In this document: in pieces, positions 38,085 through 61,543 of the stretch
Numbering within the stretch: position 1 is the stretch's first letter
Layout: the number at the start of each line of letters is the position of its first letter
Assembly: GCA_963700285.1 (NCBI GenBank)
Contig: CAVOXA010000015.1
Span: 128,001-192,000 of the forward strand
DNA: 64,000 bases
Source of the DNA: an uncultured Chloroflexia bacterium
GTDB taxonomy: Bacteria > Chloroflexota > Anaerolineae > JAAYZQ01
Reading direction: 5' to 3'
Program-made: the position numbers and the translations under genes
The notes under the pieces: generated by a model
Seen by the model: only the letters and a program-made list of their open reading frames with translations
Told to the model about the DNA's origin: nothing
Databases searched by the model: none

Positions 38085-39827
38085 ATGGCACTTACGAAAT
38101 CGGAAATCCGGTCGGGGGCCTACTATGACTCTGTGGTGCTCATGCAATTGCAGCGCTCTCTGGCTGCCCTCCCTGGCGTCCTTGATGCCGGCGTGGTGAT
38201 GGGTACCGAGGCCAACCAAGAGATCCTGGCCCAAACTGGCCTGTTGACAGCGGAAGGTCTGGCCGGGGCGGCCGATGATTTGGTGATTGTGGTCAAGGCT
38301 GAGACTGAAGCTGAGGCTGAGGCGGCTCTGGGACAGGTGGACGAACTCCTGGCGGTGCGGAGGGGCGGTGTCGAGCAGGACTACTGTCCCAGGAGCCTGG
38401 AAGCGGCAGCCGAAATGAGGCCCGACGCTCAATGGGTGCTGATATCCGTCCCGGGTCGCTATGCTGCCGGGGTGGCCCGCCAGGCCCTGCGCCTGGGCAA
38501 GAACGTGTTCCTCTATAGCGACAACGTTTCTCTGGCCGATGAAGTCGCCCTCAAACAGACTGCCGCCGAATGCGGTCGCCTGGTGATGGGGCCGGACTGC
38601 GGTACGGCCATTGTCAACGGCGTGGGACTTGGTTTTGCCAATCGGGTGCGCCGGGGCTCAATCGGCTTGGTCGCTGCCTCGGGAACCGGTCTGCAGCAGG
38701 TCAGCGCCCGCATCCACCAGTTGGGAGGTGGCATCAGCCATGCCCTGGGTACTGGTGGGCGGGACCTCTCCGAATCTGTCGGGGCGGTGACAGCTTGTCA
38801 GGGCCTGGATCTCCTCATTCGTGATCCTGAGACCCGCGTGATTGTACTTGTCTCCAAACCTCCAGCACCCCAGGTGGCCAGTGAACTGTTGGATGTTGCC
38901 CGTTCCTCGGACAAGCCAGTCGTGGTGGACTTTGTTGGCTACTCCCCCTCTGTGCGTGAGTCGGACAACTTGCGCTTTGCTACCACCTTTGATGAGGCGG
39001 CTGAACTCGCCGTGCGCCTGGCGACGGAGGACGATGTGGGTGCTGGCCCGAAGCCGCACGGGACCGCAGTACCCACAGTGGCTGGACTGGATCGTTTCGC
39101 ACCAGGACAGCGCTATCTACGAGGGCTGTTTTCCGGTGGCAGCTTGGCCTACGAGGCCCTGCTTCTGCTGCAGGACTATGCTCCGGGGATCTTTTCTAAC
39201 GTTCCTTTGGAAAAGGATTTTGGCTTGTCCAACCCCATGGTCAGCCAGGCACATACCATGGTCGACCTGGGTGAAGATGAATTCACTGTCGGCCGTCTAC
39301 ACCCAATGATGGACCATGATCTCCGCATCCGACGGCTCCAGCAGGAAGCGCAGGATCCAGAGGTTGCTGTAATCCTACTCGACGTCGTACTGGGCTATGG
39401 GGCTCACCCGGATCCGGCTGGTGAGATTGCACCGGCTATTGCCCAAGCGCGCTCTGATGCGGCCGAAGTTGGCCGGTACCTCGAGGTGGTCGCCGTCGTT
39501 GTCGGTACCGACGAGGATCCGCAGGATATGGATACCCAGATCCAGCAACTAGAAGCGGCAGGTGCCTGGGTGGAGACCAGTAACGATACTGCCGTCCGCT
39601 ACGTTGGTCGCCTGATCCAGGCTCTTGCTCCGAAATCTAGAATCCTGAATCCTAAATCGGTAGACTTGGCTGTGCTTCACCAACCTCTGGGCGCCATCAA
39701 TGTTGGAGTGGAGTCGTTTGCCGAAAGCCTGCAGGCCCAAGGTGCGCCCGTCATCCAGGTGGACTGGCGGCCGCCGGCCGGCGGAAACGAGAAATTGATG
39801 GCGATTCTCGAACGGATGCGGGGCTAG
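38085..39827 (+). CDS. fdrA: FdrA (AllF-like acyl-CoA synthetase family)
   Basis: YYDSVVLM, MGTEAN, ISVPGRYA, MGPDCGT, SGTGLQ, GTGGRDL, DLGEDEFTVGRLHPM and DWRPPAGG. Confidence 0.9.
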   Translation: MALTKSEIRSGAYYDSVVLMQLQRSLAALPGVLDAGVVMGTEANQEILAQTGLLTAEGLAGAADDLVIVVKAETEAEAEAALGQVDELLAVRRGGVEQDYCPRSLEAAAEMRPDAQWVLISVPGRYAAGVARQALRLGKNVFLYSDNVSLADEVALKQTAAECGRLVMGPDCGTAIVNGVGLGFANRVRRGSIGLVAASGTGLQQVSARIHQLGGGISHALGTGGRDLSESVGAVTACQGLDLLIRDPETRVIVLVSKPPAPQVASELLDVARSSDKPVVVDFVGYSPSVRESDNLRFATTFDEAAELAVRLATEDDVGAGPKPHGTAVPTVAGLDRFAPGQRYLRGLFSGGSLAYEALLLLQDYAPGIFSNVPLEKDFGLSNPMVSQAHTMVDLGEDEFTVGRLHPMMDHDLRIRRLQQEAQDPEVAVILLDVVLGYGAHPDPAGEIAPAIAQARSDAAEVGRYLEVVAVVVGTDEDPQDMDTQIQQLEAAGAWVETSNDTAVRYVGRLIQALAPKSRILNPKSVDLAVLHQPLGAINVGVESFAESLQAQGAPVIQVDWRPPAGGNEKLMAILERMRG

Positions 39828-40235
39828 CAGTGAGGCGAGTGGGCTTTACTCAGCCGATGCGAAGAGTTGGTCCGGCAGCAGAGGCAGCAGGTACGGCTCT
39901 TGCAGTTTGTGGTATCATCACGCTGGCAACGCCTGTCTGGGCCGGCCCCAGCCATATGTCGTCGGCCGGCAGCAACTGGGTCAATGTCCTGCTGGTTCCA
40001 CTGACCGCGAGTGGCATGGATGGTGTTGGCAGGGTCTGTGCCGCTGCTCGTCGCATTGGATCAGCCTCGAGAGGGGGCGAAAGAGCAGATCAAATCACGC
40101 TCACCGAGAGCGTCTTCCCATAGCCATTACTAGTTGTACGGAGTCTGATACAAGATCTTGTGGAGTGGACGTATGCGCCAGCTCCAATATTCATTCCCGA
40201 CTATCGATCTAGTCCCGTAGGAAAGGTATGCAAGC

Positions 40236-41504
40236 ATGGATATCGAGAAGGCCAATGCACAAGCAACCGAACGAATGATGGAATCCCGCCCGGTTCTGGT
40301 GGGGATGGGCAGGGCCATTGACGTGGTGCCCGGCATGCGCGAGAATCTGCTACTGCACGCAGGTCCGCCCCTGACCCTTCGGTCGGAACCTCAGGGCAAA
40401 GCCTGGGATCGCGCTTCTGGGCCGATGCGAGGCGCCATCACGGGAGCCCTGATCTTTGAGGGCAAAGCCAAAGGCGAAGACGATGCTCAAACCCTGATCG
40501 AATCGGGCGAGATTGAGCTGGAACCCTGCCATCACCATCAGGCTGTGGGGCCCATGGCTGGTGTGACCTGCCCTTCCATGTCGGTGTATATCCTGGAGAA
40601 CAAGACCTACGGGAACAAGTCCTACTCTAACCTTAACGAGGGCTATGGCAGGGTACTGCGCTACGGCGCCTATAGCGAGGAAGTGCTGGACCGCCTGCAC
40701 TGGATGGAGGAGGTGATGGCCCCGGTTCTGACCGGCGCTATCGAGGCCAGTGGCGGGATCGACATCCGTGCCCTGCTGGCCGAAGCCCTGCACATGGGCG
40801 ATGAGGGGCACAATCGCAACAAGGCCGGTTCGATTTTGTTCACGACCAAGCTTGCGCCTTTCATTGCCAGGGCTGCACCCAACGCTGATGTGGCAGCCGA
40901 CGTTCTGCGCGCTTTGGGCGACAATGCGCTGAGCGTCCTGAATCCGGTGATGGCCGCCTGTAAGGGGATGGCCGATGCCGCGCATGGCGTTGAGGGTAGT
41001 ACCATCGTAAGCACCATGGCTCGCAACGGCACCGATTTTGGCATTCGCGTCAGCGGCCTGGGAGATCGCTGGTTCACGGCCCCGGTCGCGGTACCAGAGG
41101 GCCTCTACTTTCCAGGTTTCACGGCTGAGGATGCCAGCGGTGACATCGGCGACAGTGTGATCACCGAGACTGCCGGCATTGGCGGATTTGCCATGGCTTC
41201 CGCGCCGGCCATCGTCACCTTTGTCAGTGGCACGCCGCGGGATGCCCTGAATGCCACCCTGGAAATGTACGAAATCTGCAGCGCCGAGCACAAGTACTTT
41301 AGCATGCCCCCCCTCGACTTTCGCGGAACGCCGACCGGCATCGACGTCCGTAAGGTCGTGGAGACAGGCATTACGCCCCGAGTCAACACTGGAATTGCCC
41401 ACAAAGATGCTGGCGTCGGTCAAGTCGGCGCCGGGCTGGTACGCCCACCGATGGCCATGTTTGAGGAGGCGTTGGTGGCTTTTGCACAAGAATACGGATA
41501 CTAG
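40236..41504 (+). CDS. DUF1116 protein (YlbE/YahG, AllG-like)
   Basis: LLHAGPP, VGPMAG, LNEG...LRYGAY, LHMGDEGHNRN, MARNG, DIGDSVITETAGIGG and NTGIAHK. Confidence 0.88.
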   Translation: MDIEKANAQATERMMESRPVLVGMGRAIDVVPGMRENLLLHAGPPLTLRSEPQGKAWDRASGPMRGAITGALIFEGKAKGEDDAQTLIESGEIELEPCHHHQAVGPMAGVTCPSMSVYILENKTYGNKSYSNLNEGYGRVLRYGAYSEEVLDRLHWMEEVMAPVLTGAIEASGGIDIRALLAEALHMGDEGHNRNKAGSILFTTKLAPFIARAAPNADVAADVLRALGDNALSVLNPVMAACKGMADAAHGVEGSTIVSTMARNGTDFGIRVSGLGDRWFTAPVAVPEGLYFPGFTAEDASGDIGDSVITETAGIGGFAMASAPAIVTFVSGTPRDALNATLEMYEICSAEHKYFSMPPLDFRGTPTGIDVRKVVETGITPRVNTGIAHKDAGVGQVGAGLVRPPMAMFEEALVAFAQEYGY

Positions 41505-41520: not shown

Positions 41521-43194
41521 ATGGACCGCGATCAATTCATCAAAACCATGGCTGATGCCAAGTTGTACGACCTGACCCAGGGGTGCAGTATCTTTACGCC
41601 GCCCTGGCCTGGAGAGAAGGCGCTGGAAGTACACTTTTTCAAGCGCGTCACGGGTGCTTATGGCGGTGGGCTGGGTGCCAATGGCCAACTGCTCAATTGG
41701 AGCAACACGGTCGGCACTCACTTGGTGGGCGAAACCGCTTTTCATTCGAAGGGCAGGGCCATGGCGGACATCACCTTGGAAGATGTTTGTGGCCAGGGTG
41801 TTGTCGTAGACATCTCTGACGCGGTATCTGACTACAGTCTGTATACGCCCGAGATGGTCATGGAGCGGGCCACGGTCAAAAAGGGTGACATCCTCATCAT
41901 CAATACAGGCTACCATCGCTACTCTTGGGATCAACCGGATGTCCACAATCCAGAGGCCCAGGGTGGTGTCGAGTCCAAGGAATTCGGCTTCCTCGTGCGC
42001 CATCCGGGCCCCTCGCCTGACTTTTTCAAGTGGGCGCTGGAAATGGAGCTCAAAGTAGTAGGCGTGGATTGTGGGTGTGTTGAACATCCCATGAATACTG
42101 CCATCCGCTACATGCATGCGAACGAGTTCCAAAAGGCCGAAGCGAAACTGGTGCGTGACCATGGCAAGACGTGGGACGAGATGTTCCCTCCCGAGGAGTA
42201 CTATGAGCTGACTCACGTCACCATGCCCAAGGCTCACCTGCTCCTGGCAGAATCGATCGTGGGCGACATCCAAAAGTTGAACAATCAACGGGCCTGGATC
42301 ATGATCCCACCCATTCCCTACATGGAGGTCGAGACCTCGTGGTCCCGTGCTTGTGCCCTCCAGGCACCTGAGGGCATGGACGAAGAAGAATTCTTCCAGG
42401 TCATGGATTCGGCCGAGATGCTGGATCTCACAGTACCCTTTAGCGTCCAGACACCCCAGTGGGCCAACTATGTGCCACTCACCGTCACCTATACCAAGCG
42501 GGTTGGTGGGCAGAACTTTGGTATGGGCCGTAATGGCTCCATTTGCAATGCCAGCATCCACTTGGGCACCCACATGGATGGAGAAAAGCACTTTTGGCCG
42601 GCTGGCCGGACCATTGGCGAGGTCCCCCTGGAGGAATGGGTTGGTCCTGGCGTGATCGCTGATATTTCGCAACTGGTCAGCGACGCTAGTGTGTACACTC
42701 CCGGGATGATCGAAAGCGTGGTCGACGTCCGCGAGGGTGACATCCTCATCATCAAGACCGGCTGGAGCAAGTATGGCTGGTACAGCCCCGATTCGGACGA
42801 GTTCCGCTACATGATCAAGCACCCCGGCCCCTCTCCTGATTTTTCGGAATGGTGCGTGGGCAAAAAGATAAAGTGGCTTGGTGTTGATGCCGTCAGTCAG
42901 GATCATCCAATGAACACCATCCAGCGCGTCTGGCATCCCAAGACTTTTGAAGAGGCCAACCGCAAACTGATTCAAGATTTCGGCAAGGATTGGGACGAGA
43001 TGTTCCCGCTGGACCACTACTACCAGGATACACATCTGAACCTCTTCCCCGAAAAGATCGTCCACGCTGAAAATCTGGGGGGCGACATTGGAACCACGCC
43101 CAGCGGCCGGTACTATATTGGCTGCTACTTGCAGAAAGGGATGGAGATTGCCTCCATGTGGGGGCGCTTTATTGCCTTCAAAGAAAAGGAATAG
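41521..43194 (+). CDS. Tandem two-domain cyclase (kynurenine formamidase-like) protein
   Basis: Two homologous halves (second starts ~42376), each with GDILII.TG, HPGP and GVD....HPMNT; HxGTHxD is intact only in domain 2. Confidence 0.88.
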   Translation: MDRDQFIKTMADAKLYDLTQGCSIFTPPWPGEKALEVHFFKRVTGAYGGGLGANGQLLNWSNTVGTHLVGETAFHSKGRAMADITLEDVCGQGVVVDISDAVSDYSLYTPEMVMERATVKKGDILIINTGYHRYSWDQPDVHNPEAQGGVESKEFGFLVRHPGPSPDFFKWALEMELKVVGVDCGCVEHPMNTAIRYMHANEFQKAEAKLVRDHGKTWDEMFPPEEYYELTHVTMPKAHLLLAESIVGDIQKLNNQRAWIMIPPIPYMEVETSWSRACALQAPEGMDEEEFFQVMDSAEMLDLTVPFSVQTPQWANYVPLTVTYTKRVGGQNFGMGRNGSICNASIHLGTHMDGEKHFWPAGRTIGEVPLEEWVGPGVIADISQLVSDASVYTPGMIESVVDVREGDILIIKTGWSKYGWYSPDSDEFRYMIKHPGPSPDFSEWCVGKKIKWLGVDAVSQDHPMNTIQRVWHPKTFEEANRKLIQDFGKDWDEMFPLDHYYQDTHLNLFPEKIVHAENLGGDIGTTPSGRYYIGCYLQKGMEIASMWGRFIAFKEKE

Positions 43195-43217: not shown

Positions 43218-44096
43218 ATGAAACCGGCTCCTTTCAAATACTATGCACCGGCCACGGTTGAAGAGGCCCTGGCGCGACTGTCCGAACATGGCTGGGATGC
43301 CAAGGTGCTGGCCGGCGGACAGAGTCTGATTCCGATGATGAACTTTCGCCTGGCTCAGCCGGCTGTTCTCGTCGACTTGAACAATATCCCTGAACTGTCT
43401 TACGTCCGCCCTCTCAGAGATGGCGGCTTGCTCGTGGGGGCCATGACCCGCCAGCAGCAGCTAGAACGCGATCCATTGGTCGCCGAGCGAGCACCCATGA
43501 TCCACGCCGCGATGCCAAAAATCGCCTACTCCCAGATCCGCAGTCGAGGTACCATCGGCGGCAGCATTGCCCATGCCGACCCCTCAGCCGAACTGGTGGC
43601 GGCCAGCGTGGCCCTCAAGGGACGCTTTCGGCTCCGTCGAGGGGCCACGGAGCGCTGGGTGCCGGCCAATGAGTTCTTTGTCGGGCTCTTTACGACAGTT
43701 TTGGAACCGGACGAGCTGCTGTTGGAGGTAGCATTGCCACCTATGCCCAAGCGCACTGGATGGTCTTTCCTGGAAGTGGCCCGGCGCCACCACGATTTCG
43801 CTCTGGTGGGGGCTGCTGCCGTCGTGACCCTAGACAGGAAGGGACAATGCGAGGAGACCCGCCTGGTATACTTTAGCGTCGGCGATGGTCCCGTGGAGGC
43901 GCACCAGGCGGCAGACGTACTGAGAGGTCAAGAACCCACTCCGAAGATTATCCAGGTGGCCGCTGAGACTGCTGGTGACGCTGATCTCGATCCCAACAGT
44001 GACATTAACGCCTCGGCCGAATATCGCCGGCACCTGGCCAAGGTTCTGGGCCGGCGCGCTCTCACAGAAGCTTTTGAGCGAGTCAGTCAGGGTTAG
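43218..44096 (+). CDS. Mo-hydroxylase FAD-binding subunit (CoxM-like)
   Basis: MKPAPFKY, LAGGQSLIPMMNFRLA, RGTIGGS..HADP and ASAEYRRHL. Confidence 0.92.
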   Translation: MKPAPFKYYAPATVEEALARLSEHGWDAKVLAGGQSLIPMMNFRLAQPAVLVDLNNIPELSYVRPLRDGGLLVGAMTRQQQLERDPLVAERAPMIHAAMPKIAYSQIRSRGTIGGSIAHADPSAELVAASVALKGRFRLRRGATERWVPANEFFVGLFTTVLEPDELLLEVALPPMPKRTGWSFLEVARRHHDFALVGAAAVVTLDRKGQCEETRLVYFSVGDGPVEAHQAADVLRGQEPTPKIIQVAAETAGDADLDPNSDINASAEYRRHLAKVLGRRALTEAFERVSQG

Positions 44097-44160
44097 ATAT
44101 GGGCCTGACAGGGCGGATGCTGCACATCCGTCGACAAGCGCGTCGGGTTTGGAGGTTAGA

Positions 44161-44638
44161 ATGAGCGATCTGACGACTGTTTCCATTGACGTAAACGGCA
44201 CCTTCTATGAACGCGCGGTCGAGCCACGCCTGTCTGCTCAGCGATTTCCTGCGCCACGAACTGGGTCTGACCGGCACGCATGTCGGTTGCGAGCATGGGG
44301 TATGTGGCGCTTGTACCGTGTTGTTCGATGGTCAACCGGTCCGCTCCTGTTTGATGTTCGCTGTGCAGGCCAATGGCCATCAGGTCACGACTGTCGAAGG
44401 GCTGGGTACCCCGGAAAACTTGCACCCCATTCAGGAGGCATTCCGGGAAAGCCATGGCGCACAATGTGGCTTCTGTACGCCAGGCTTTCTGCTGACCCTG
44501 GTACCCTTTCTGGAGGACAATCCTGATCCCACCGAGCAAGAGATCCGCGAGGCATTAGCCGGGAACCTCTGCCGTTGTACCGGCTACCAGCACATTGTTG
44601 ATGCCGTCCAACTCGCAGCACAAAAGATGAGGGCATGA
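44161..44638 (+). CDS. Mo-hydroxylase [2Fe-2S] subunit (CoxS-like; frameshift ~44233)
   Basis: GCEHGVCGACTV, QCGFCTPG and GNLCRCTGY. Confidence 0.92.
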
Positions 44639-44743
44639 TACGTGATATGCGACGTGTGATGTATTCCAACTATCCATCCTCATGGTTGGTGCGTCCTGTA
44701 CCTCACGAGTCACGCATCGCGGTGCACATATAGGAGTCGAACC

Positions 44744-47086
44744 GTGACGAAAAAGTACGTTGGCCAGCGCATGACCCGAACCGAAGATCCAAAGCTCCTA
44801 ACCGGGCAAGCCCTGTTTGTGGACGATGTCCAAGTGCCTGGGATGTTGCACGCGGCTTTCTTGCGCAGTGACTATGCCCATGCCCGCCTGAAGAGCCTGG
44901 ACGTGGCCGCTGCACGGGAGCGTCCTGGTGTGGTGGCTGTCTTTACTGCTGAGGATATGGGCGCCGCTTGGCGACCCAGTCCTCCTAACGTGTCACCTCC
45001 ACCTGGCATGCCGGGCGTTACCTTTTTTTCACGCACGCCGGTGCCCCTCGTGAAGGACAAGGTCAGGCACGCAGGAGAGGCGCTGGCTTTGGTTATCGCT
45101 GAGAGCCGCTACATTGCTGAGGATGCTGTCGAAGACATTTGGGCCGACCTGGAGCCACTGGGTGCTGTGGTGGACCTGGAAACGGCCCTGGATCCCGGCG
45201 CGACCCTCGTCCACGAAGACTTGGAATCCAACTTGGCCGCCCACCTCATCCAGGAGAAGGGGGACTATGAGGCGGCTCGGAAGCAGGCTGACGTGGTCGT
45301 CAAGCGACGTATCACCATCGACCGCGGTGCGGCTGGGGCCATGGAGAACAGGGGCATCGTTGCCCACTGGGAGCCAAAGAGTGAGCACCTGACGTTGTGG
45401 GATACAACCCAGGCTCCCATCCCCATCCGCAACGGTCTGGCAGCACTGTTTGGCCTGGCGGCACCCCAGGTACGGGTCATCGCTCCCTTTGTCGGCGGTG
45501 GTTTTGGGCCCAAGATCATGTTGTACTATCCCGAGGAAGTCGTCCTCACCTGGGCGACGATGCAATTGGGCAAACCCATCAAGTGGATCGAAGATCGCCG
45601 GGAGAACTTTTTCGCTACCACTCAGGAACGCGGCCAGGTCCACTATGCCGAGATAGCGGTCACCAAAGAAGGGCGCGTATTGGGGATTCGCCATGACTTT
45701 GTTCACGACACGGGTGCCTACAACCCCTATGGCTTGACGATTCCCCTCAATACACAAAGTCATTCCATGGGCGCCTATGACATCGCCAACTACTATTCCG
45801 AGCTCAAGGTTGTCTTTACCAACAAGACAATTGTCACGCCGGTACGCGGAGCTGGACGGCCACAGGGCATCTTTCTGGCGGAGCGATTGATGGACCTTGC
45901 TGCCAAAGAACTGGGTATGGACAGGCTCGAGATCCGGAAAAAGAACCTCATCCCACCTGACGCCTTCCCCTACGAGCACAAGATCATTGACCAGGCATTT
46001 GCTCCGCTGATGTATGACAGCGGGAACTATGCAGCCACGCTGGAAAAAGCAGCCGCCATGATCGGCTACGAAAAGTTCCTGCAAGAGGAGCAACCTCGAC
46101 TCCGGGCCGAGGGTAAGCACGTAGGTCTCGGCATTGTGCCCTTTGTCGAAACGTCGGGCGTTGGGCCCTACGAGGGTGCCCGGGTCACCGTCGAGACCGA
46201 TGGCCGGGTGAGCGTTGCCACGGGGGTTGGTACGCAGGGACAGGGCCACTTTACCTCTTTTGCCCAGATCGTAGGCGACCAACTGGGTGTGAGCCCGCGC
46301 AAGGTGCGCGTGGTGACGGGTGATACGTCCGAATTCCACTGGGGAACAGGTACCTTTGCCTGTCGGGGCGCTGTCGTCGCAGGCAATGCCATCAACGCAG
46401 CGGCGTTGTCAGTCCGGAAAAAGGTCCTTGCCCACGCCAGCAAGGTGCTGGAAACACCCGAGGAGGAGCTAGAGTTGGTGGATGGCCTGGTCCGAGTGGC
46501 TGATCTGCCGCAGCAGTCAATCAGTCTGGGTGAACTGGCAGCGATGGCCAATCCGCTGCGGGGTGCGGTTGAGCCAGGAACCGAGCCTGGCCTGGAGGCT
46601 ACTGACTACTTTGGCCCCCGCTATGGCGCTGTGGCCAACGGCGCCCACGCCCTGATTCTCGAGGTCGATCCAGAGACGATGATGATCGAGATTAAGCGCT
46701 ATGTGACTGTCGAGGATTGTGGTACGATACTGAATCCCCTGATCGTGGACGGCCAGATCCATGGCGGTGTGGCCCTGGGCATAGCCAACTCTTATTACGA
46801 GCAGCTCATCTATGATGACAACGGGCAGCTTCTCAACGCCTCGCTGGCTGATTATCTGATCCCCACGGCTACTGAGATCCCGAGGATCGAGATCGGGCAC
46901 GAGAATACGCCCACGCCGCTCAACCCCATTGGCAACAAAGGTGTTGGTGAAGGCGGCGCTATCCCCGTGCCGTCCGCATTTGCCCAAGCCATTGAGGACG
47001 CACTGGCCGACTATGGCTTGGAAGTGCTTGAGATGCCGTTAAGTCCCAATCGGCTGTTCGAATTGCTCTATCAACGTGATGCGTAA
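44744..47086 (+). CDS. Mo-hydroxylase large molybdopterin subunit (CoxL/XdhA family)
   Basis: VGGGFGPK, TPVRGAGRPQG, QGQGH, GQIHGG and KGVGEGG. Confidence 0.92.
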   Translation: MTKKYVGQRMTRTEDPKLLTGQALFVDDVQVPGMLHAAFLRSDYAHARLKSLDVAAARERPGVVAVFTAEDMGAAWRPSPPNVSPPPGMPGVTFFSRTPVPLVKDKVRHAGEALALVIAESRYIAEDAVEDIWADLEPLGAVVDLETALDPGATLVHEDLESNLAAHLIQEKGDYEAARKQADVVVKRRITIDRGAAGAMENRGIVAHWEPKSEHLTLWDTTQAPIPIRNGLAALFGLAAPQVRVIAPFVGGGFGPKIMLYYPEEVVLTWATMQLGKPIKWIEDRRENFFATTQERGQVHYAEIAVTKEGRVLGIRHDFVHDTGAYNPYGLTIPLNTQSHSMGAYDIANYYSELKVVFTNKTIVTPVRGAGRPQGIFLAERLMDLAAKELGMDRLEIRKKNLIPPDAFPYEHKIIDQAFAPLMYDSGNYAATLEKAAAMIGYEKFLQEEQPRLRAEGKHVGLGIVPFVETSGVGPYEGARVTVETDGRVSVATGVGTQGQGHFTSFAQIVGDQLGVSPRKVRVVTGDTSEFHWGTGTFACRGAVVAGNAINAAALSVRKKVLAHASKVLETPEEELELVDGLVRVADLPQQSISLGELAAMANPLRGAVEPGTEPGLEATDYFGPRYGAVANGAHALILEVDPETMMIEIKRYVTVEDCGTILNPLIVDGQIHGGVALGIANSYYEQLIYDDNGQLLNASLADYLIPTATEIPRIEIGHENTPTPLNPIGNKGVGEGGAIPVPSAFAQAIEDALADYGLEVLEMPLSPNRLFELLYQRDA

Positions 47087-51327: not shown

Positions 51328-51333
51328 GGATCG

Positions 51334-53459: not shown

Positions 53460-54488
53460 ATGCAGACTGCGAGGCTGGGCAAGACTGAACTGTGGGTATC
53501 CAGGGTGGGATTTGGCGGCATTCCCATTCAGCGTTTGACTGAGGCGCAGGCAATCCGCGTGGTACATACCAGCCTGGACCTGGGTGTTACCCTTCTTGAC
53601 ACGGCCAATGGCTACACGACCAGTGAAGAGCGCATCGGCAAAGCATTGGCCGCCATGCCGGGACAGCGGCAGCAGGTCGTCATCGCGACCAAAACGGGAG
53701 CACGAGACGCCAACGGGGCTCAGGAACATCTGGATCTGAGTCTGAAGCGGCTGCAAATAGAGGCCATCGACCTATGGCAGTTCCACAACGTCAGTACGCT
53801 CGAGGCGTACGAAAAGGTGCTTGGGCCAGGCGGAGCGATGGAAACGGCGCGGCGGGCCCAGGAAGCGGGCAAGATCCGCCACATTGGCATCACCAGCCAC
53901 TCGATGGACATGGCCCTGAAAGCTGTATCTTCAGGCTACTTTGAGACGATCCAATTCCCCTTTAACTTTGTCACGAACGAGGCCGCGGAGCGATTGGTCC
54001 CCTTGGCCAGGGAGCATGATCTGGGCTTCATCGCCATGAAACCTTTTGCTGGCGGATTGCTGGATGACGCCAACCTGGCACTCAAGTACCTGCTGCAGTT
54101 CGAGGGCGTCGTACCTGACCCAGGTATCGAGGTAGTTGAGGAGATCGAAGAGATCGCCGGCGTCGTCTCTGGGTCGTGGGCTCTCTCAGTCCAGGAGCAG
54201 CGCAAGATGGAGCGCATCCGTGACGAGGCCGGTACGCGCTTTTGTCGTCGCTGTGGCTACTGTGAACCCTGCGAGCAGGGTGTACGCATTTCCCTGGTTA
54301 TGAACCTGCGAAGCGCTATGCAGCGTTTCCCAGCCGACAGATTGAGTGCTGGGCCGCTCGCCGATGCCGTGGAAGGCGCCAGACATTGTATTGAGTGCGG
54401 CGAGTGCGAAGAGAAATGCCCGTATCACCTGCCAATCCGTGAGATGATCTGGGAAAATCTCGAGTATTACGATAGCGTGGTATCTTGA
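53460..54488 (+). CDS. Aldo/keto reductase with C-terminal 4Fe-4S domain
   Basis: LGKTEL.VSRVGFG, DTANGY, IATK, AMKPFAGG; CRRCGYCEPC and CIECGECEEKCP. Confidence 0.9.
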   Translation: MQTARLGKTELWVSRVGFGGIPIQRLTEAQAIRVVHTSLDLGVTLLDTANGYTTSEERIGKALAAMPGQRQQVVIATKTGARDANGAQEHLDLSLKRLQIEAIDLWQFHNVSTLEAYEKVLGPGGAMETARRAQEAGKIRHIGITSHSMDMALKAVSSGYFETIQFPFNFVTNEAAERLVPLAREHDLGFIAMKPFAGGLLDDANLALKYLLQFEGVVPDPGIEVVEEIEEIAGVVSGSWALSVQEQRKMERIRDEAGTRFCRRCGYCEPCEQGVRISLVMNLRSAMQRFPADRLSAGPLADAVEGARHCIECGECEEKCPYHLPIREMIWENLEYYDSVVS

Positions 54489-54543: not shown

Positions 54544-55422
54544 ATGAAACTTATCGATCTGACTATTCCTCTGGGCATTGGTACACCGCCGTGGCCCACC
54601 TATGAGCCGTTGCAGGTCAAGTATTTCAAGCGGTTGGCCCCCAACGGGGCCAATGGCCAGTTGCTCACCCATTCGAACCACCTAGGTACGCACCTGGATG
54701 GTGAGATTCACTTTTACACCCCCGGCAAGGACATCGCCCAGTTGGAGCTGAACGATTTCTTGGTAGGTCCGGGCGTTGTCGTGGATCTCTCCGATGCCAC
54801 CGGCGATTACCAGATCTATACCTCAGAGATGATCGAGGAGCGTGTAGAGGTCCGGGATGGCGACATCCTTATCATCCATACCGGTTACCACCACTTTGGC
54901 TGGGACATGCCCCATGCCGACGAAGTCCGCTACATGGTCCAGCACTCTGGTCCAGACCGGGAGTTCACCGAATGGGCCAAGGAGAAAAAGATCAAGTGGA
55001 TCGGAGTTGACTGTGGCAGTGCCGACCATCCCATGAATACCATCATTCGCGACTGGATGCCCCGCCAGGCCGCCGAGGCCGACAGGGTTTTCCAGGATAT
55101 GTACGGCGCGACCCTGGCCGAGCGCTTTACGCCAGACAAGTACCAGTTGATGCACCTGGAGATGTTCCCCGACCATATCATTCATGCCGAGTGCGTCGGT
55201 GGGGAGATCGACCTGCTGGTCAACCGGCGGGCCACCATCGGCTTCTTCCCTTGGCGCTTTGTCGACGGAGAGTCCTGCATCGGTCGCTGCGTGGCCATGG
55301 TCGACGATGACGAGTACGAGGAGCTGATGGCCCGCAAGGCGGAACTGCCCCAGACCCGCTTCGGCGATTGCTATGATCCGGAGCACGTGGAGCGGATCAA
55401 GCGGTTGACCAAGCGCTTCTAG
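54544..55422 (+). CDS. Cyclase (kynurenine formamidase-like metal hydrolase)
   Basis: HLGTHLDGEIH, GDILIIHTG, GVDCGSADHPMNT and MH...HAE. Confidence 0.9.
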   Translation: MKLIDLTIPLGIGTPPWPTYEPLQVKYFKRLAPNGANGQLLTHSNHLGTHLDGEIHFYTPGKDIAQLELNDFLVGPGVVVDLSDATGDYQIYTSEMIEERVEVRDGDILIIHTGYHHFGWDMPHADEVRYMVQHSGPDREFTEWAKEKKIKWIGVDCGSADHPMNTIIRDWMPRQAAEADRVFQDMYGATLAERFTPDKYQLMHLEMFPDHIIHAECVGGEIDLLVNRRATIGFFPWRFVDGESCIGRCVAMVDDDEYEELMARKAELPQTRFGDCYDPEHVERIKRLTKRF

Positions 55423-55583: not shown

Positions 55584-56792
55584 ATGCAACCACTAGAAGG
55601 TATCCGTGTGCTGGACCTGACCCGAATTCTGGCCGGGCCCTACTGTACCATGATGTTGGGCGACCTGGGGGCGGACGTAATCAAGGTAGAGCAACCTGGC
55701 CGGGGCGACGATTCACGAAGTTGGGGACCGCCGTTTGTGGGTGAGTCCTGCGGGCCTTTTCCTGGTGAGGCAGCCTACTTTTTGGCCGCCAACCGGAACA
55801 AACGTGGAATTACGGTCAATCTCAAGGCGCCAGAAGGGCGGGAGATCGTACGCCAGCTGGCGCGTGCCTCGGATGTGCTGGTGGAGAATTTCCGCGGCGG
55901 TACCCTGGAACGGATGGGGCTGGGCTACGAGGATCTGCGAGGTCTGAATCTACGCCTTGTCTACTGTTCTATCAGTGGCTATGGCCGTACTGGCCCTTAC
56001 GCTGATCGGCCCGGCTACGATTTCATCATCCAGGCTGAAGGCGGGATGATGGGTATCACCGGGCCCGAGGAGGGGCAGCCGTATCGGGTTGGGATCCCTA
56101 TCGTGGACATTGCGACTGGTATGTTTGCGAGTACGGCCATTTTGGCCGCGCTCCGGGCCCGCGATTTGACGGGGGAAGGACAGTACGTGGATATGTCCCT
56201 CCTGGATTCACAGGTGGCGGTGCTGACCAACGTGGCATCCAACTATCTGGTTGGGGGGCAGGGTCCGCGGCGGCTGGGCAATGCACACCCCAACATCACG
56301 CCCTACGAGGCTTTTCGCGCACGGGACAAGTGGTTTGCCCTGGCTGCGGGCAATGAACGGCAATGGGCCATCCTGTGCAACGTTATCGACCGGCCAGAGT
56401 TGAAGGACGATCCTCGTTTTGTCGACAACAGTAGCCGGGTGGCGAACCGGGCAGTGCTACGCGAGGTGCTTGATGGCGCCTTTGCAGCACGTGACGCTGC
56501 CGAGTGGCTGGCCGAGTTCCGCAGCGCCGGGCTCCCTTGCGGGCCGATCAATTCGGTTCCGGAGGTCTTTCAGCATCCCCAGGCCGAAGCTCGGTCGTTC
56601 GTGCTGGAGGCTGAGCACCCGACTGCCGGTACGGTACGGTTTCCCGGATTCCCCTATAAACTCTCCGCGACCCCTGCGGCCATACGCCGGCCACCCCCAC
56701 GGTTGGGCGAGCACACGGAAGAGGTGCTGCAGGATCTGCTGGGCTATGCTGCCGAGGAGGTGTCGGCCCTCCGAGAACGCGAGGTTGTGTAG
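55584..56792 (+). CDS. Class III CoA transferase (CaiB/BaiF, formyl-CoA transferase family)
   Basis: PLEGIRVLDL..LAGP, LGADVIKVE, NRNKR, ENFR, SISGYG and PRLGEHT. Confidence 0.93.
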   Translation: MQPLEGIRVLDLTRILAGPYCTMMLGDLGADVIKVEQPGRGDDSRSWGPPFVGESCGPFPGEAAYFLAANRNKRGITVNLKAPEGREIVRQLARASDVLVENFRGGTLERMGLGYEDLRGLNLRLVYCSISGYGRTGPYADRPGYDFIIQAEGGMMGITGPEEGQPYRVGIPIVDIATGMFASTAILAALRARDLTGEGQYVDMSLLDSQVAVLTNVASNYLVGGQGPRRLGNAHPNITPYEAFRARDKWFALAAGNERQWAILCNVIDRPELKDDPRFVDNSSRVANRAVLREVLDGAFAARDAAEWLAEFRSAGLPCGPINSVPEVFQHPQAEARSFVLEAEHPTAGTVRFPGFPYKLSATPAAIRRPPPRLGEHTEEVLQDLLGYAAEEVSALREREVV

Positions 56793-56848: not shown

Positions 56849-57751
56849 GTGACTGAGGTGTTTGCCAGGCCTGGTTTGCCCAGCTTTGACTATGTTCGAC
56901 CGGGCACAGCCGATGAGGTGACCGGCCTCTTGCAGGAGCACGGTGAGGCCGCGCGGCTATTGATGGGCGGTACCGACCTGTTCCCTGGCTTGCGGGATGG
57001 CGCATTCCGTCCCAAGGTAGTCGTGGACGTCAAGGGCTTGCCCGGCATGGGCGACATCTTGTTCGACAGGGAAACAGGGCTGACCGTCGGAGCGGCCGTG
57101 ACGATGAACGCTTTGGCCAACCACCCAGACGTGCAGGTGCATTATCCGCTGCTGGCCGAGGCGGCCGGAACGGTAGCGTCTTATCAGATACGCAACCGAG
57201 CTACCCTCGGTGGCAACCTGTGCAATGCTTCTCCTTGCGCTGACACATCTCCGGCAACGCTTGTATTGGAGGCTCACTTTGGCCTGTACGGTCCCAGTGG
57301 GCAGAGGACTGTCCCCGCCGGCGAGTTCTTTGTCGGGCCAGGCCAGACAGTGCTCCAGCCTGGCGAGCTGATGACGGCCATCCGCTTCCCACCCCTGCCA
57401 GCCGGTGCAGCGGGCCGCTACCTCAAGCTGGGCCGCTGCAAGTCAGGTGACCTTGCCCTCGTCGGCGTGGCCATCCTCGGTTACCCTGACGGGACGCGTT
57501 CCGGATACAAGCATCGCCTTGGGCTGGGCTCGGTCGCACCGACGCCGTTGCGGGTGGAGGAAGCAGAAGATATCCTAGCCGTGGCGCCCCCGGGAGAAGA
57601 TGCCTTTGTCCTGGCCGCCGAGAGGGCGATGGGGGTCGCTTCCCCCATTAGCGACGTCCGCGGCGGCGCGAGCTACCAGAAGGCCATGGTGCGCGCGCTC
57701 ACGCTGCGCGGCTTGCGAGATGTCTGGAAGCAGATGAAGGAGGGAGAGTGA
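56849..57751 (+). CDS. Xanthine dehydrogenase-family FAD subunit
   Basis: MGGTDL, QIRNRATLGGNLCNASP and PISDVRG. Confidence 0.92.
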   Translation: MTEVFARPGLPSFDYVRPGTADEVTGLLQEHGEAARLLMGGTDLFPGLRDGAFRPKVVVDVKGLPGMGDILFDRETGLTVGAAVTMNALANHPDVQVHYPLLAEAAGTVASYQIRNRATLGGNLCNASPCADTSPATLVLEAHFGLYGPSGQRTVPAGEFFVGPGQTVLQPGELMTAIRFPPLPAGAAGRYLKLGRCKSGDLALVGVAILGYPDGTRSGYKHRLGLGSVAPTPLRVEEAEDILAVAPPGEDAFVLAAERAMGVASPISDVRGGASYQKAMVRALTLRGLRDVWKQMKEGE

Positions 57752-57752
57752 C

Positions 57753-58226
57753 GTGGCTACACACGCAATCACCCTGACGGTGAACGGCGCCAAGGAGCGC
57801 CTGGACGTCCCCTCTAACATGACCCTGCTGCAAATGCTTCGGGAGAAACTGGCCCTCACCGGCACCAAGAATGGCTGCGAGGCTGGGGAGTGTGGGGCCT
57901 GTACCGTGTTGCTGGACGGCGAACCGGTAAACTCGTGCATGGTGCTGGCTGTTGAAGCCGATGGCCGGGAGGTCTTGACGGTAGAAGGGCTGGCCCCGGA
58001 GGGGGGATTGAGACCTTTGCAGGAGGCATTTGTGGAGCACAACGCTGTACAGTGTGGCTTCTGCACGCCAGGAATGCTGATGTCGGCGACCGCATTGCTG
58101 GAGCGGAATCCAGAGCCAACTGAGCAAGAGATCAGAGAGGCGCTGGTCGGCAACCTGTGCCGCTGCACGGGCTATGTACGTATTGTCGACGCCGTTCAGG
58201 CAGCAGTGAGCAGAGGAGGTGCGTAG
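57753..58226 (+). CDS. Xanthine dehydrogenase-family [2Fe-2S] subunit
   Basis: GTKNGCEAGECGAC, QCGFCTPG and NLCRCTGY. Confidence 0.93.
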   Translation: MATHAITLTVNGAKERLDVPSNMTLLQMLREKLALTGTKNGCEAGECGACTVLLDGEPVNSCMVLAVEADGREVLTVEGLAPEGGLRPLQEAFVEHNAVQCGFCTPGMLMSATALLERNPEPTEQEIREALVGNLCRCTGYVRIVDAVQAAVSRGGA

Positions 58227-58227
58227 A

Positions 58228-60585
58228 ATGGCCAATCTTGCCTCTGAGGGGTTCACTTCTGAGCCCGTTGGCAAAAGTGTGCCGCGCATCGATGCCTACG
58301 AAAAGGTCACTGGGTCGGCAGTGTTTTCCGATGACCTGCAGTTTGGTCCTGGGCTCTACTATGGGCGTCTGGTCCGGAGTCCTCACGCCCATGCTCTGAT
58401 CAAGGACATCAACGTAAACAAAGCCCTGGAGATGCCCGGCGTCAAGGCCGTCGTTACAGGGGAGGATGTACCCAACAATATCGGTCTGTACCTCATCGAC
58501 CGGCCCATCTTTGCCCGGGGCCGCGTCCGTTACGTCGGCGAACCCGTCGCCGGAGTTGTAGCCACCAGCGAGGAGATAGCCCACGAGGCGGTCCAACTCG
58601 TCGAGGTGGAATACGAGGAACTGCCAGCCGTATTTGACCCGATACGGGGCGCTCAGCCTGATGCGCCTTTGCTCCACCCAAACTTGGGCGAGTACGAGGT
58701 CGCCAACTTTATCTTTCCTAACCCAGGTACCAACATTTCGGAGCATTTCAAGCTACGCCGTGGGGATGTGGAAGCGGCATGGTCCCGATGCGCGGCCGTC
58801 GTGGAGGGGACCTTCCATTTGCCCCAGATCCAGCACGTGCCTATCGAACCCCATGTTGCTGTGAGTCACTGGGAGGGATCTGGGGAGGTCACCTTGTGGA
58901 CCTGCTCCCAGTCGCCCTTTGCTCAGCGCGATTTGGTGGCTCAGAGTCTAGGCATCCCCCACGGCAACCTGCGGGTGGTGGCGCCCTACGTCGGCGGTGG
59001 CTTTGGCGGCAAGGCCGGCATTTCTATGGAGGTCTGCGCGGTGGTTATGGCCCGGGCAGTCAAGGGGCATCCGGTCAAGCTGCGCATGACGCGCGAGGAG
59101 GAGTTCATCGGCACGTCGGTGCGCCAGAGCCTGGTAGCTCAGACCAAGATCGGCTGCGACGCTGAGGGCAACCTGCTGGCCATGGAGACCCAGTATTACT
59201 TTGGCGGTGGAGCCTACAACGACTATGGTGTCAACGTCGCCCGAGCAGCAGGCTACTCGTGTACCGGTCCCTACTTGATCCCTAATGTCAAGGGTGATTC
59301 CTACTGCGTTTACACGAATCAACCCATCGGCAGCGCCATGCGCGGCTTTGGTATGCCCGAGATCCATTGGGGCATCGAGCAGATCATAGACCAGCTTGCC
59401 GAAAAGATCGCGATGGATCCCGCCGAGTTCCGGCGGCGCAATTGCGTCAAGACCGATGCCACCATCCTGACCGGTATGAAGATGCCGCCCATTGACCTGG
59501 TGGCCTGCATCGACAAGGCTACCGAGGCAGTCAACTGGGGCAGGACAGAGGCTGCCTCTGCTCCGCACAAGGTACGCGGCAAAGGCCTGGCCATCATGTG
59601 GAAAGCTCCAGCCATGCCGCCCAATCCCGGCAGCGCCGCCATCATTCACTTTAACGAGAACGCCACGGTCAATGTCTTGATCGGCGCCCAGGACCTGGGC
59701 CAGGGCGCCTTCACCGTCCTGGCCCAGATGGCGGCCCAAGCTCTGGGTGTGCCATACGAATGGGTGAGTGTCTCCGTACCGGTGGATACCAAGTACAGCC
59801 CCTACGAATGGCAGACGGTTGCCAGCCGTATCACCTGGTCCACCGGCAATGCGGTGCGGTCGGCGGCCCTAGATGCCCGACGGCAGATCCTGGAGGTCGT
59901 GGCCAAGCACTGGGGCGAAACCCCAGAAGATCTGGATATCAAGGATGGTGTGGTCTTTTCCTACCGGTCCGAGGAGGAGCAGCCACTTCAGAACATGGTC
60001 GTCTACGGGCTGCCCAACGAGGGCTTTGAGGGTTGGAAGGGAGGCCCCATCGTCGGTCAGGGGAAATTCATGCCCACCTATGTCACTAATCTTGATTTCG
60101 AGACTGGTCAGGGCACCCGTGCTGTCGTACACTATACCGTCGGCGCCCAGGCGGTTGATCTGGAGGTTGACACCGAGACCGGGGAGATCGACGTGCTCAA
60201 GATCGCCAGCGTGTACGATGTGGGCAAGGCCATCAACCCCGATCTGATCCTGACCCAGATCGAGGGTGGGGCAGTGCATGGCATGAGTTCGGCTTATGAG
60301 GCGCTCCATTTTGACGAAAAGGGGCGGCCTCTGAACCCGAATATGGTCGACTACCGTATCGCCACGGCCATGGATACTCCCGGCGAGATCCACGGCGACT
60401 TTGTCGAGACGCCGTTGGAGGATGGCCCCTGGGGCGCTCGGGGCGTGGGCGAACACGTGATGGTCCAGACCGCGCCGGCCATGGCCAATGCCATCTACGA
60501 TGCGCTGGGTATTCGCTTCAGCGAACTACCACTTTCGGCGGAGAAGGTCTTTTTGGCTTTGCAGGACCTACCTGCAGAGAGCTAG
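58228..60585 (+). CDS. Xanthine dehydrogenase-family molybdopterin subunit
   Basis: KVTG, VGGGFGGK, AMRGFG, QDLGQG, ASR, QIEGG and GARGVGE. Confidence 0.93.
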   Translation: MANLASEGFTSEPVGKSVPRIDAYEKVTGSAVFSDDLQFGPGLYYGRLVRSPHAHALIKDINVNKALEMPGVKAVVTGEDVPNNIGLYLIDRPIFARGRVRYVGEPVAGVVATSEEIAHEAVQLVEVEYEELPAVFDPIRGAQPDAPLLHPNLGEYEVANFIFPNPGTNISEHFKLRRGDVEAAWSRCAAVVEGTFHLPQIQHVPIEPHVAVSHWEGSGEVTLWTCSQSPFAQRDLVAQSLGIPHGNLRVVAPYVGGGFGGKAGISMEVCAVVMARAVKGHPVKLRMTREEEFIGTSVRQSLVAQTKIGCDAEGNLLAMETQYYFGGGAYNDYGVNVARAAGYSCTGPYLIPNVKGDSYCVYTNQPIGSAMRGFGMPEIHWGIEQIIDQLAEKIAMDPAEFRRRNCVKTDATILTGMKMPPIDLVACIDKATEAVNWGRTEAASAPHKVRGKGLAIMWKAPAMPPNPGSAAIIHFNENATVNVLIGAQDLGQGAFTVLAQMAAQALGVPYEWVSVSVPVDTKYSPYEWQTVASRITWSTGNAVRSAALDARRQILEVVAKHWGETPEDLDIKDGVVFSYRSEEEQPLQNMVVYGLPNEGFEGWKGGPIVGQGKFMPTYVTNLDFETGQGTRAVVHYTVGAQAVDLEVDTETGEIDVLKIASVYDVGKAINPDLILTQIEGGAVHGMSSAYEALHFDEKGRPLNPNMVDYRIATAMDTPGEIHGDFVETPLEDGPWGARGVGEHVMVQTAPAMANAIYDALGIRFSELPLSAEKVFLALQDLPAES

Positions 60586-61543
60586 ACATCCACAGGAACC
60601 CTGTCAGGGTATCTGCCCCAGAGGTGTGACCATGGGACAGGACGTTCGTCGCAGTGTTCACGAGTTGATCTTCTCTGCCTTTTGCCAATGCATCCAGTAG
60701 ATGATGCCAGGCAGCGCTGCATTCTCCCTCTGCTGCTGCCCTGAGAAAAGCCGCAGAGAGTATTGTGGTCCGAGGTGCAGCCATCTCGATGATCTCATAA
60801 CAGAGGCGGCGGGGAGTAGGGTGGGCTAGCCAGGCCCAGAGCATGAACCCGATCAGAAAATCATCGCCAGCTGGCGTGAGGCCACTCCCCAGCCCCGCCA
60901 GTTGCGTGGCACCCTCTCGCAGTGAAGTCGTGTCCCCCTTCCACCCGATTTGTAGAGCTTCTGCGCCAGCCAGGGCTGACGCGAGAAAGGCGAGAGCGAG
61001 GTCCTGTCGTAAGGGATCCGATGGAGCCCCTTGTACCCCACCTCGCATTTCGCTCCTTCTGGTCTGCAGTCCGCCCGACTCGGACAGCCCCATCGTCAAG
61101 AGCGTGAGCAGGCTACCTTGGGGGTTTTTGGACAGGGCGATAGATTGCAGGAGGGCAAGCCGCTGCGTGATAACCCGCTGATAGACCCTAAGGCGCTCCC
61201 AGAGGGCCCGGGGCTCCCAGACCCTGGCTTCGCTCAGGGCGATGACCAACTCGCCAACTTGCAGGTGCCTCCCGGTCAAATGGGCTGGCATCCCCGGCTT
61301 GACAGCGGCAAAAACGCCTTGCTCGCCGTCGATCACGATGTTGAGTGGCCCATCGCCGATCTGAGGCAACACCAGAGTGGCCACGGTACCGTCGGAGGTC
61401 ACCAGACTGCAAGCTCGATCAAATACAGCCAACACCCGGGTGACGAGCGTCTCCCCCTCGATCTGCTCCCATACCCGGCGGCTAATGGAGCGGGCTCGCA
61501 GATCCGCTTTCTGCGGTTCGATTACAGCGTGACTTTTAGGCAA
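60518..61543 (-). CDS. DUF2877 protein (YlbF/YahE, AllH-like)
   Basis: LAGLGSGLTPAGDDFLIG, RTTILS and GHTSGADTLTG. Confidence 0.85.
   Translation of the reverse strand: MPKSHAVIEPQKADLRARSISRRVWEQIEGETLVTRVLAVFDRACSLVTSDGTVATLVLPQIGDGPLNIVIDGEQGVFAAVKPGMPAHLTGRHLQVGELVIALSEARVWEPRALWERLRVYQRVITQRLALLQSIALSKNPQGSLLTLLTMGLSESGGLQTRRSEMRGGVQGAPSDPLRQDLALAFLASALAGAEALQIGWKGDTTSLREGATQLAGLGSGLTPAGDDFLIGFMLWAWLAHPTPRRLCYEIIEMAAPRTTILSAAFLRAAAEGECSAAWHHLLDALAKGREDQLVNTATNVLSHGHTSGADTLTGFLWMSSSLQVGPAKPKRPSPPKVVVR

Follow-up and report, generated by a model that had tools for sequence, protein, structure and literature searches.

Oxidative breakdown of pyrimidine bases has been known since the 1950s. 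In this pathway barbiturase (EC 3.5.2.1) converts barbiturate to ureidomalonate (PMC3758960), and because barbiturase homologs are rare, occurring in 3% of genomes in a survey cited by that paper, the pathway itself is called rare. Here we describe a cluster of 18 genes, about 23 kb long, in a 64,000-nucleotide stretch (the window) of the genome of an uncultured Chloroflexia bacterium (GCA_963700285.1, contig CAVOXA010000015.1, positions 128,001 to 192,000). We consider it likely that this cluster encodes an oxygen-independent oxidative breakdown of uracil and thymine through barbiturate, with non-homologous ring-openers and capture of carbamoyl phosphate.

The cluster resembles the oxidative pyrimidine pathway of Rhodococcus and other actinobacteria in its predicted course, namely oxidation by a molybdenum (Mo) enzyme to barbiturate, opening to ureidomalonate and a malonate end. 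Moreover, one of its two Mo enzyme types accompanies a true barbiturase in Embleya and Nonomuraea. In contrast to that pathway, the window encodes cyclases of the KynB fold, and the Toblerone-fold barbiturase (PF09663) had no match in the source genome, whereas the same search found it in 10 of 401 genomes of the phylum; the source assembly is 7.05 Mb and 89% complete, a figure that every genome-wide negative below carries with it. The window also differs in having two Mo enzymes and two ring-openers, and no gene for a free ureidomalonase-type hydrolase in the cluster. The actinobacterial route, in which the Mo hydroxylase oxidises uracil/thymine at C6, yields urea and malonate, whereas the window's AllFGH proteins are predicted to yield carbamoyl phosphate and malonamate. 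By analogy, the cluster would work like the barbiturate pathway without belonging to it by enzyme family.

Escherichia coli AllFGH is reported to split oxalurate into oxamate and carbamoyl phosphate (PMC11326118), and allFGHK is described as adjoining biuret genes (PMC12625717). All three subunits (FdrA, DUF1116 and DUF2877) are present in the window, where AllG is approximately 50% identical to E. coli DUF1116 proteins, and carbamate kinases, the counterpart of AllK, are present in the genome. In contrast to the E. coli system, the window lacks AllD and the allantoin genes, its allH stands apart in convergent orientation, no carbamate kinase is encoded within the cluster, and the predicted substrate is one carbon longer. 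The cyclases belong to PF04199, which includes KynB, isatin hydrolase and dihydrophloroglucinol cyclohydrolase, so that ring hydrolysis has a reported precedent in the family (PMC10470551). Two of the window's domains share the metal ligands, and the AlphaFold model of the tandem cyclase (pLDDT 88.8) matches the folds of KynB and isatin hydrolase; nevertheless, by structure the window cyclases are at most 20% identical to known members, include a tandem form with a dead N-terminal site, and form a separate, highly conserved subfamily with an HPMNT signature. The reductive urate pathway (YgfK, SsnA, HyuA, YgeW/X/Y, YqeA; bioRxiv 10.1101/2025.05.19.654654) likewise is described as gaining ATP by phosphorolysis of a ureido group to carbamoyl phosphate, a step that is hydrolytic in some other genomes, but it employs different enzyme families; a related cluster lies elsewhere in the source genome. 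Our literature search, which left subscription journals mostly uncovered, yielded no publication that connects barbiturate or uracil with this cyclase subfamily or with AllFGH, nor any account of such a route, in keeping with the initial annotation's proposal of an undescribed N-heterocycle pathway.

Gene content, motifs, folds and co-occurrence are reported below as observed, and substrates and reactions as predictions from them. The Mo hydroxylases would convert uracil or thymine to barbiturate or 5-methylbarbiturate, and the cyclases would open the ring, giving ureidomalonate from barbiturate. AllFGH, with phosphate, is predicted to split ureidomalonate or its methyl form into carbamoyl phosphate and (methyl)malonamate; a carbamate kinase encoded outside the cluster would then use carbamoyl phosphate to form ATP, while an amidase, also outside the cluster, would free (methyl)malonate. 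The CoA transferase would yield (methyl)malonyl-CoA, and a decarboxylase elsewhere would convert this to acetyl- or propionyl-CoA. The window subfamily of cyclases is also found in haloarchaea, and if the proposal is true, the pathway is common in Anaerolineae and haloarchaea and conserves ATP, while the action of AllFGH extends beyond oxalurate. It would also supply candidate genes for the thymine branch, for whose ring-opening enzyme we know of no gene, nor did the literature search return a paper. The cluster thus provides candidates, open to direct testing, for genes of a long-known pathway that has been mapped only in part.

Two modules sharing one AllFGH

Profile and sequence searches of the window recovered all genes of the initial annotation in their places, together with the active-site loops PVRGAGR and AMRGFG of the two Mo enzymes. 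The genes run in the order allF, allG, tandem cyclase (tCYC), Mo hydroxylase 1 (Mo1; FAD, FeS and large subunits), coxG, a BMP-type ABC importer, an Fe-S aldo/keto reductase, single cyclase (sCYC), CoA transferase, Mo hydroxylase 2 (Mo2) and convergent allH. We read the window as a fusion of two modules that share one AllFGH: module A (Mo1, CoxG, tCYC and an NmrA-like protein) and module B (Mo2 and sCYC). The features are as follows.

27730..28584 (+): NmrA-like NAD(P)-binding protein, displaced member of module A (63% identity to the NmrA inside relatives' clusters)
38085..39827 (+): AllF/FdrA, subunit of the predicted ureidomalonate carbamoyltransferase (NF004760, 537 bits, cut-off 433)
40236..41504 (+): AllG (DUF1116) subunit (PF06545, E 1e-93; single copy in the genome)
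41521..43194 (+): tandem cyclase-family protein tCYC, predicted module A ring-opener (PF04199 twice; N-domain ~41521-42408)
43218..47086 (+): Mo1, predicted uracil/thymine dehydrogenase (FAD, FeS and large subunits)
43218-44096, ~44161-44638 and 44744-47086 (+): Mo1 FAD subunit, FeS subunit (frameshift near 44232) and large subunit (loop PVRGAGR), respectively
47160..47822 (+): CoxG, predicted to anchor Mo1 to the membrane, with a hydrophobic helix at its C-terminus (PF06240; C-terminal sequence)
48080..48108 (+): sigma-70-like promoter consensus TTGACA-17-TACAAT ahead of the transporter (11/12 match)
48217..53319 (+): BMP-type ABC importer, comprising binding protein, ATPase and two permeases (reading frames interrupted by insertions of one base)
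53460..54488 (+): aldo/keto reductase with a 4Fe-4S domain (profile match)
54544..55422 (+): single cyclase-family metallohydrolase sCYC, predicted module B barbiturate ring-opener (intact H46/H50/D52/H204/E216)
55584..56792 (+): class III CoA transferase, predicted (methyl)malonate CoA transferase (PDB matches)
56849..60585 (+): Mo2, predicted second pyrimidine dehydrogenase (FAD, FeS and large subunits)
56849-57751, 57753-58226 and 58231-60585 (+): Mo2 FAD, FeS and large subunits (loop AMRGFG in the last)
60518..61543 (-): AllH (DUF2877) subunit, convergent (PF11392, E 8e-26)

AllF and AllH are each the sole match in the genome. The NmrA-like gene stands 10 kb upstream of the cluster, and lies within the module in relatives.

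The gene grouping is not a product of chance, because it recurs in two sets of neighborhoods and a survey of the class, and the combination is strongly conserved in Anaerolineae. The sCYC set holds 80 genome loci, many of them incomplete (39 exceed 20 kb); they feature a Mo2 ortholog of at least 50% identity in 42 loci, AllG in 41, AllF in 40, an NCS2 permease in 29, AllH in 27, a CoA transferase in 14 and carbamate kinase in none. In the tCYC set, which consists of the 42 metagenome loci of at least 8 kb out of 80, AllG occurs in 39 loci, the Mo1 large subunit in 29, AllF in 24, a nitrilase in 21, BMP in 19, NmrA in 15, a CoA transferase in 12, Mo2 in 8 and DinB genes in 7. Across 341 Anaerolineae genomes, which are kin rather than independent and for each of which three Mo candidates were scored, the cyclase subfamily was detected in 126 (24 weak cyclase matches were unlisted, five placed in the cyc3 type by inference). 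It accompanies Mo1 in 71 of 72 genomes and Mo2 in 68 of 71.

The Mo enzymes mostly occur apart. Mo1 and Mo2 were found together in 21 genomes only, and Mo1, Mo2, tCYC and sCYC are all present in 12, and the initial annotation's double hydroxylation of one substrate is not supported. Mo1 is accompanied by a tandem or cyc3-type cyclase in 70 of 72 genomes, and the two types never co-occur. Where sCYC is the only type (49 genomes), Mo2 is present in 42 and Mo1 in 1; 20 genomes have Mo1 and both cyclases with Mo2 not found among the candidates scored (five confirmed), and 11 Mo2 genomes have a cyclase but no sCYC among the matches listed. Paired ring-openers recur: locus family f89 has two cyclases, and three clusters of family f63 combine a cyclase with a Toblerone enzyme (a fourth f63 cluster is cut by a contig end).

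The near-constant tandem or cyc3 partner of Mo1 suggests a second substrate, perhaps 5-methylbarbiturate. From the co-occurrence counts it follows that sCYC would not be enough for the products of Mo1, and that tCYC could serve either Mo enzyme. Most simply, uracil and thymine would both be substrates of Mo1, as they reportedly are of the Rhodococcus enzyme. Within the pyrimidine assignment, we give somewhat less than even weight to a division in which sCYC opens barbiturate while tCYC is needed for 5-methylbarbiturate and also takes barbiturate. A strict specificity of one enzyme for one base fails, because 20 of 55 tCYC genomes lack sCYC and 4 genomes pair tCYC with Mo2 without Mo1; the modules may instead differ in electron acceptor, with a CoxG-anchored Mo1 and a soluble Mo2. 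More tentative still is the joint proposal that tCYC is a 5-methylbarbiturate hydrolase pseudo-dimer, sCYC a barbiturase that evolved independently on the KynB fold, and AllFGH an ATP-yielding ureidomalonate phosphorylase.

Several reading frames are interrupted. Compared with a 91%-identical locus of the same genus (L021), in which the importer genes are intact, frameshifts of one base affect the Mo1 FeS gene and the genes for BMP, the ATPase and both permeases. The extra base at 49399 is missing from a near-identical public-run contig, and several of the remaining ones are missing from related contigs, for which reason the insertions in the Mo1 FeS and importer genes are probably assembly errors. 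Near-identical contigs over the BMP gene also occur in two sediment metatranscriptome runs; contigs cannot show transcription and are not used as evidence here. The promoter-like sequence is a consensus match only (1 site found, 0.3 expected). The Fe-S aldo/keto reductase was considered as a core member and rejected, its ortholog occurring in 1 of 80 sCYC loci, the same-genus one.

Cyclases and Mo hydroxylases

The three PF04199 domains of the initial annotation are all present, but only two of them keep the full metal motif. In sCYC, H46/H50/D52/H204/E216 are intact in 101 of 101 copies, and the motif HxGTHxD...H...E is complete in the tCYC C-domain in 86 of 86. The tCYC N-domain has the full PF04199 metal motif in 0 of 86 copies; His46 and Asp52 are lost in all 86 and in 120 of 120 among the homologs listed (80-87% identity). 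KynB active sites are described as being completed by the partner subunit (PMC4243253), and for this reason the most plausible view of tCYC is that of a pseudo-dimer having a single active site. A tree of 65 cyclase domains (quick search, long-branch warnings), which played no part in the substrate claims, groups both halves of tCYC together with support 96, and they therefore probably arose by internal duplication. The residue preceding the catalytic His is Met203 in 129 of 129 single-type cyclases and Thr in 7 of 7 cyc3 proteins, while the tCYC C-domain is split across both states of this candidate methyl-pocket residue (Thr in 56 of 86, Met in 30 of 86).

Database labels on the cyclase homologs read arylformamidase, and Mo1 scores 868 bits with the CO dehydrogenase group-5 model (cut-off 950), both of which would fit a chance grouping of a kynurenine formamidase, a form-II CO dehydrogenase and allantoin genes. 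We regard this explanation as extremely improbable: the window cyclases reach only 48 and 43 bits (sCYC 43) with the arylformamidase model TIGR03035, against a cut-off of 223, while a better KynB-like gene (125 bits) lies elsewhere in the genome and kynureninase on another contig; furthermore, gene order is kept across many families and the conservation counts contradict chance. The window cyclases are thus not kynurenine formamidases. Nor does Mo1 qualify as a form I CO dehydrogenase, scoring 543 bits with TIGR02416 against 991 and lacking Cys in its PVRGAGR loop, where the Cu-binding loop of Mo-Cu CO dehydrogenase is AYRCSFR. Its large subunit shares 44% identity with the Mo enzyme that accompanies barbiturase in Embleya, an enzyme with the similar loop PYRGAGR. 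For Mo2 the best-scoring model is XdhA, yet it falls below the curated xanthine dehydrogenase cut-offs (XdhA 541 vs 780; PucD 415 vs 784), and better XdhA/PucD candidates are found on another contig of the genome (C1).

A 39%-identical cyclase occurs on a Rhodococcus ruber plasmid (L123:1-14600) with two nitrilases, two Rieske oxygenases, a cupin and DUF1116; no Mo enzyme was seen in the stretch read, which perhaps encodes a route for N-substituted rings.

Probable pyrimidine context in related clusters

A search with Mo1 of plasmid-collection records returned two actinomycete replicons, of Embleya and Nonomuraea, as the best matches. On the Embleya replicon (NZ_CP108785), proteins 43, 54 and 29% identical to the window's AllF, AllG and AllH are grouped with the related Mo enzyme, PucR, a RutG-like permease, CoxG and a nitrilase (54% identical to the relatives' nitrilase). 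Beyond a ~5-kb stretch whose genes are unrelated lie a barbiturase ortholog (595 bits to the Rhodococcus structure PDB 5HWE, 324 to the family ranking next), carbamate kinase, an AccD/AccA-like carboxyltransferase and a CoA transferase (44%), along with NmrA (54% identical to the relatives' reference NmrA), an NCS1 permease and a cytosine deaminase above cut-off. No cyclase of the window subfamily was found on this 5.7-Mb replicon. Nonomuraea shows the same Mo1-AllFGH block, with a barbiturase ortholog ~30 kb away and a cyclase match not found. Embleya shares the set and has barbiturase but no such cyclase, and module A consequently looks like the Embleya cluster with tCYC in the barbiturase slot.

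Permeases and deaminases of the relatives suggest the same class of substrate. The motif TNYGEN, whose E we take to be the uracil-type signature and Q that of xanthine carriers, occurs in 35 of 36 NCS2 permeases of relatives' clusters, and the permeases of both modules share one signature; one representative scores higher with UraA (212) than with RutG (165) or PbuX (108). Cytosine-deaminase-like genes are present in 6 of 80 sCYC loci, codA/codB adjoin the cyclase in Halostagnicola, and in 4 genomes of one genus AllFGH and carbamate kinase lie directly beside Mo1-like genes and two cyclases.

The same chemistry might still serve, in module A or in both, a 5-substituted, oxidised or thio-pyrimidine or another cyclic ureide. 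Module A is often accompanied by the unexplained NmrA (15 of 42 loci) and DinB (7 of 42), AllFGH is reused after other ureide hydrolases such as cyanuric-acid-hydrolase-like and BiuH-like genes, and the barbiturase-family protein of the f63 clusters is nearest not to barbiturase but to the orphan Frankia enzyme 5HY0, reportedly inactive on barbiturate and cyanurate. We nonetheless judge such a substrate unlikely, since Embleya combines NmrA, CoxG, nitrilase and the Mo1 type with a true barbiturase and a cytosine deaminase, and since one permease signature is common to both modules.

Alternatively, the cyclases could hydrolyse the open ureide, in the manner of a ureidomalonase, and another protein such as AllFGH could open the ring. 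In the f63 clusters a cyclase accompanies a barbiturase-family gene in the absence of AllFG, and the textbook reaction of the family is hydrolysis of a linear N-formyl amide (PMC4243253). Against this, Embleya has barbiturase and AllFGH without a cyclase, minimal clusters (L163) consist of Mo enzyme, cyclase and amidase only, E. coli AllFGH acts on a linear ureide, and members of the cyclase family, namely isatin hydrolase and dihydrophloroglucinol (DPG) cyclohydrolase, are reported to open rings (PMC10470551). We therefore hold this order of events to be very improbable, and retain the cyclases as the predicted ring-openers.

The f63 clusters (L157:~2000-15000, L258:6000-19000 and L259:7700-17500) comprise an amidase, the 5HY0-like Toblerone hydrolase, a Mo1-like enzyme, the cyclase and a cytosine-deaminase-like gene, with an AMP ligase in two and a uracil-type permease in one. 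This pyrimidine context gives the 5HY0-like orphan class a candidate substrate in 5-methylbarbiturate; if the slot logic of the window holds, the same compound would be the substrate of the orphan Frankia-type Toblerone hydrolases.

AllFGH, downstream steps and the rest of the genome

Candidate amide-removing proteins in relatives occupy what appears to be a single slot. In a tally of 247 loci, duplicates and loci without a cluster included, a nitrilase occurs in 60, a GNAT-fold protein in 57 and an amidase in 13, with never two in one locus; the single tested amidase is nearest to malonamidase E2 (E 6e-51). These proteins fit an amide product of AllFGH. The nitrilase gene, absent from the window, separates AllF from AllG in 32 of the 55 loci that allow the comparison. 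In the same-genus locus, 26 residues resembling nitrilase (E 0.064) were too weak a match to be accepted as an amidase remnant, and none was seen in the window gap. The GNAT-fold protein is itself an orphan (L114:10922-11644, 241 aa, no Pfam or NCBIfam match, model pLDDT 87.5), found in 49 of 80 sCYC loci and never with the nitrilase, in two subtypes of which one is tied to a thiolase/DUF35 pair. Cultured carriers include Bellilinea caldifistulae, whose locus L061 has sCYC together with the GNAT-fold gene, and Halostagnicola larsenii.

The downstream endings of relatives are malonyl-type, not oxalyl-type. A Na+-pump (methyl)malonyl-CoA decarboxylase occurs in 15 of 80 sCYC loci and a Cys-less thiolase/DUF35 pair (e.g. 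L088:6482-7669 and L068:12773-13126) in 33 of 80, never together. The thiolase-like protein has Pro at the catalytic Cys position in 39 of 39 sequences, which is consistent with a decarboxylase role; Cys-less thiolase-like decarboxylases have precedent. By the same slot logic, the GNAT-fold protein would turn malonamate into malonyl-CoA and the thiolase/DUF35 pair would be a malonyl-CoA decarboxylase. At locus L028 module A is directly joined to a (methyl)malonyl-CoA decarboxylase and a PduL-acetate kinase fusion, which combines a cNMP-binding domain, acetate kinase and PduL in one protein (L028:16743-19082) directly downstream of the module. The window CoA transferase matches succinate-hydroxymethylglutarate CoA-transferase best in the PDB (412 bits; YfdE 283; most formyl-CoA transferases ~206, although entry 10UH, named formyl-CoA transferase, gives 374). 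It is 44-45% identical to CoA transferases of barbiturase clusters and falls below the Frc and YfdE model cut-offs (273 vs 504 and 310 vs 522).

These data bear on the initial annotation's own proposal, in which a purine or pterin is hydroxylated twice, ring-opened and sent to oxalurate, oxamate and oxalyl-CoA. Oxalurate is the reported E. coli AllFGH substrate (PMC11326118), XdhA is the best model for Mo2 and PucR-type regulators are present in some loci. BMP proteins include purine-nucleoside binders, which may be counted on the same side. However, the genome search gave no oxalyl-CoA decarboxylase (best 222 bits vs 739) and no AllD (185 vs 496, the E. coli control passing), the downstream genes are malonyl-type, the two Mo enzymes are seldom found together, and the known lumazine route is described as relying on other enzyme families (PMC12391406). 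The genome also has a separate purine cluster on C1, with YgfK above cut-off, SsnA-like, XdhA/PucD-like and 8-oxoguanine deaminase genes. The context thus points to pyrimidines, and we consider a purine or pterin substrate, with an oxalyl end, quite improbable. That purine cluster (L165-L166, C1 ~1.67-1.71 Mb) includes two Mo enzymes, two carbamoyltransferases, two BMP-ABC systems and an SHMT-GcvT fusion. The initial annotation had asked for carbamate kinase, as well as allB/C/D, to be sought in the rest of the genome, and two carbamate kinases were found, both on C1: one in an arginine deiminase operon and the other in the purine cluster (355 bits, just below cut-off). Carboxyltransferase and OadB genes are likewise present elsewhere, and no PreA-type dihydropyrimidine dehydrogenase scored above cut-off in the genome (189 vs 335), which is suggestive only.

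Several observations weigh against uracil and thymine breakdown through barbiturate. The amide-removal step is a real gap in the pathway of the source genome, where no ortholog of the nitrilase, GNAT-fold protein or amidase was found (best ~30% full-length), and neither the decarboxylase nor carbamate kinase is in the window cluster. No cytosine deaminase above cut-off was found in the genome. The permease evidence is borrowed from relatives, because the window importer is a BMP-ABC system, and 2 xanthine-type permeases were seen, both in haloarchaeal clusters. On the Embleya replicon the unrelated genes separate nitrilase from barbiturase, and there is one ring-opener only. Finally, three f63 clusters hold a complete barbiturase-family gene as well as a cyclase, so the two are not always alternatives.

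AllFGH genes also occur in other settings. One cassette found on many enterobacterial plasmids (L282:1949-9590) comprises a ring-opening amidohydrolase, an NCS2 permease, allH-allF-allG and carbamate kinase, and suggests AllFGH phosphorolysis in breakdown of the cyanuric acid type. A Peptoclostridium acidaminophilum plasmid (L281:3986-11183) carries a BiuH-like hydrolase (319 bits, cut-off 370) with allH-allF-allG and carbamate kinase.

Elsewhere in the window, a PPK2-family polyphosphate kinase above cut-off (28646-29491, +) adjoins the displaced NmrA gene. Between this gene and allF lies a signalling cluster (29845-37635, +) comprising a Ser/Thr kinase-FHA protein, a zinc-ribbon PP2C phosphatase, a VWA protein, a multi-zinc-ribbon FHA protein and a second kinase. 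An Rfam search found no RNA element within the 18-gene cluster, and detected a glmS ribozyme (RF00234) at 11711-11966 (-), with 41.3 bits against a gathering score of 37, upstream of a 613-aa open reading frame (9751-11592, -) that is putatively glmS.

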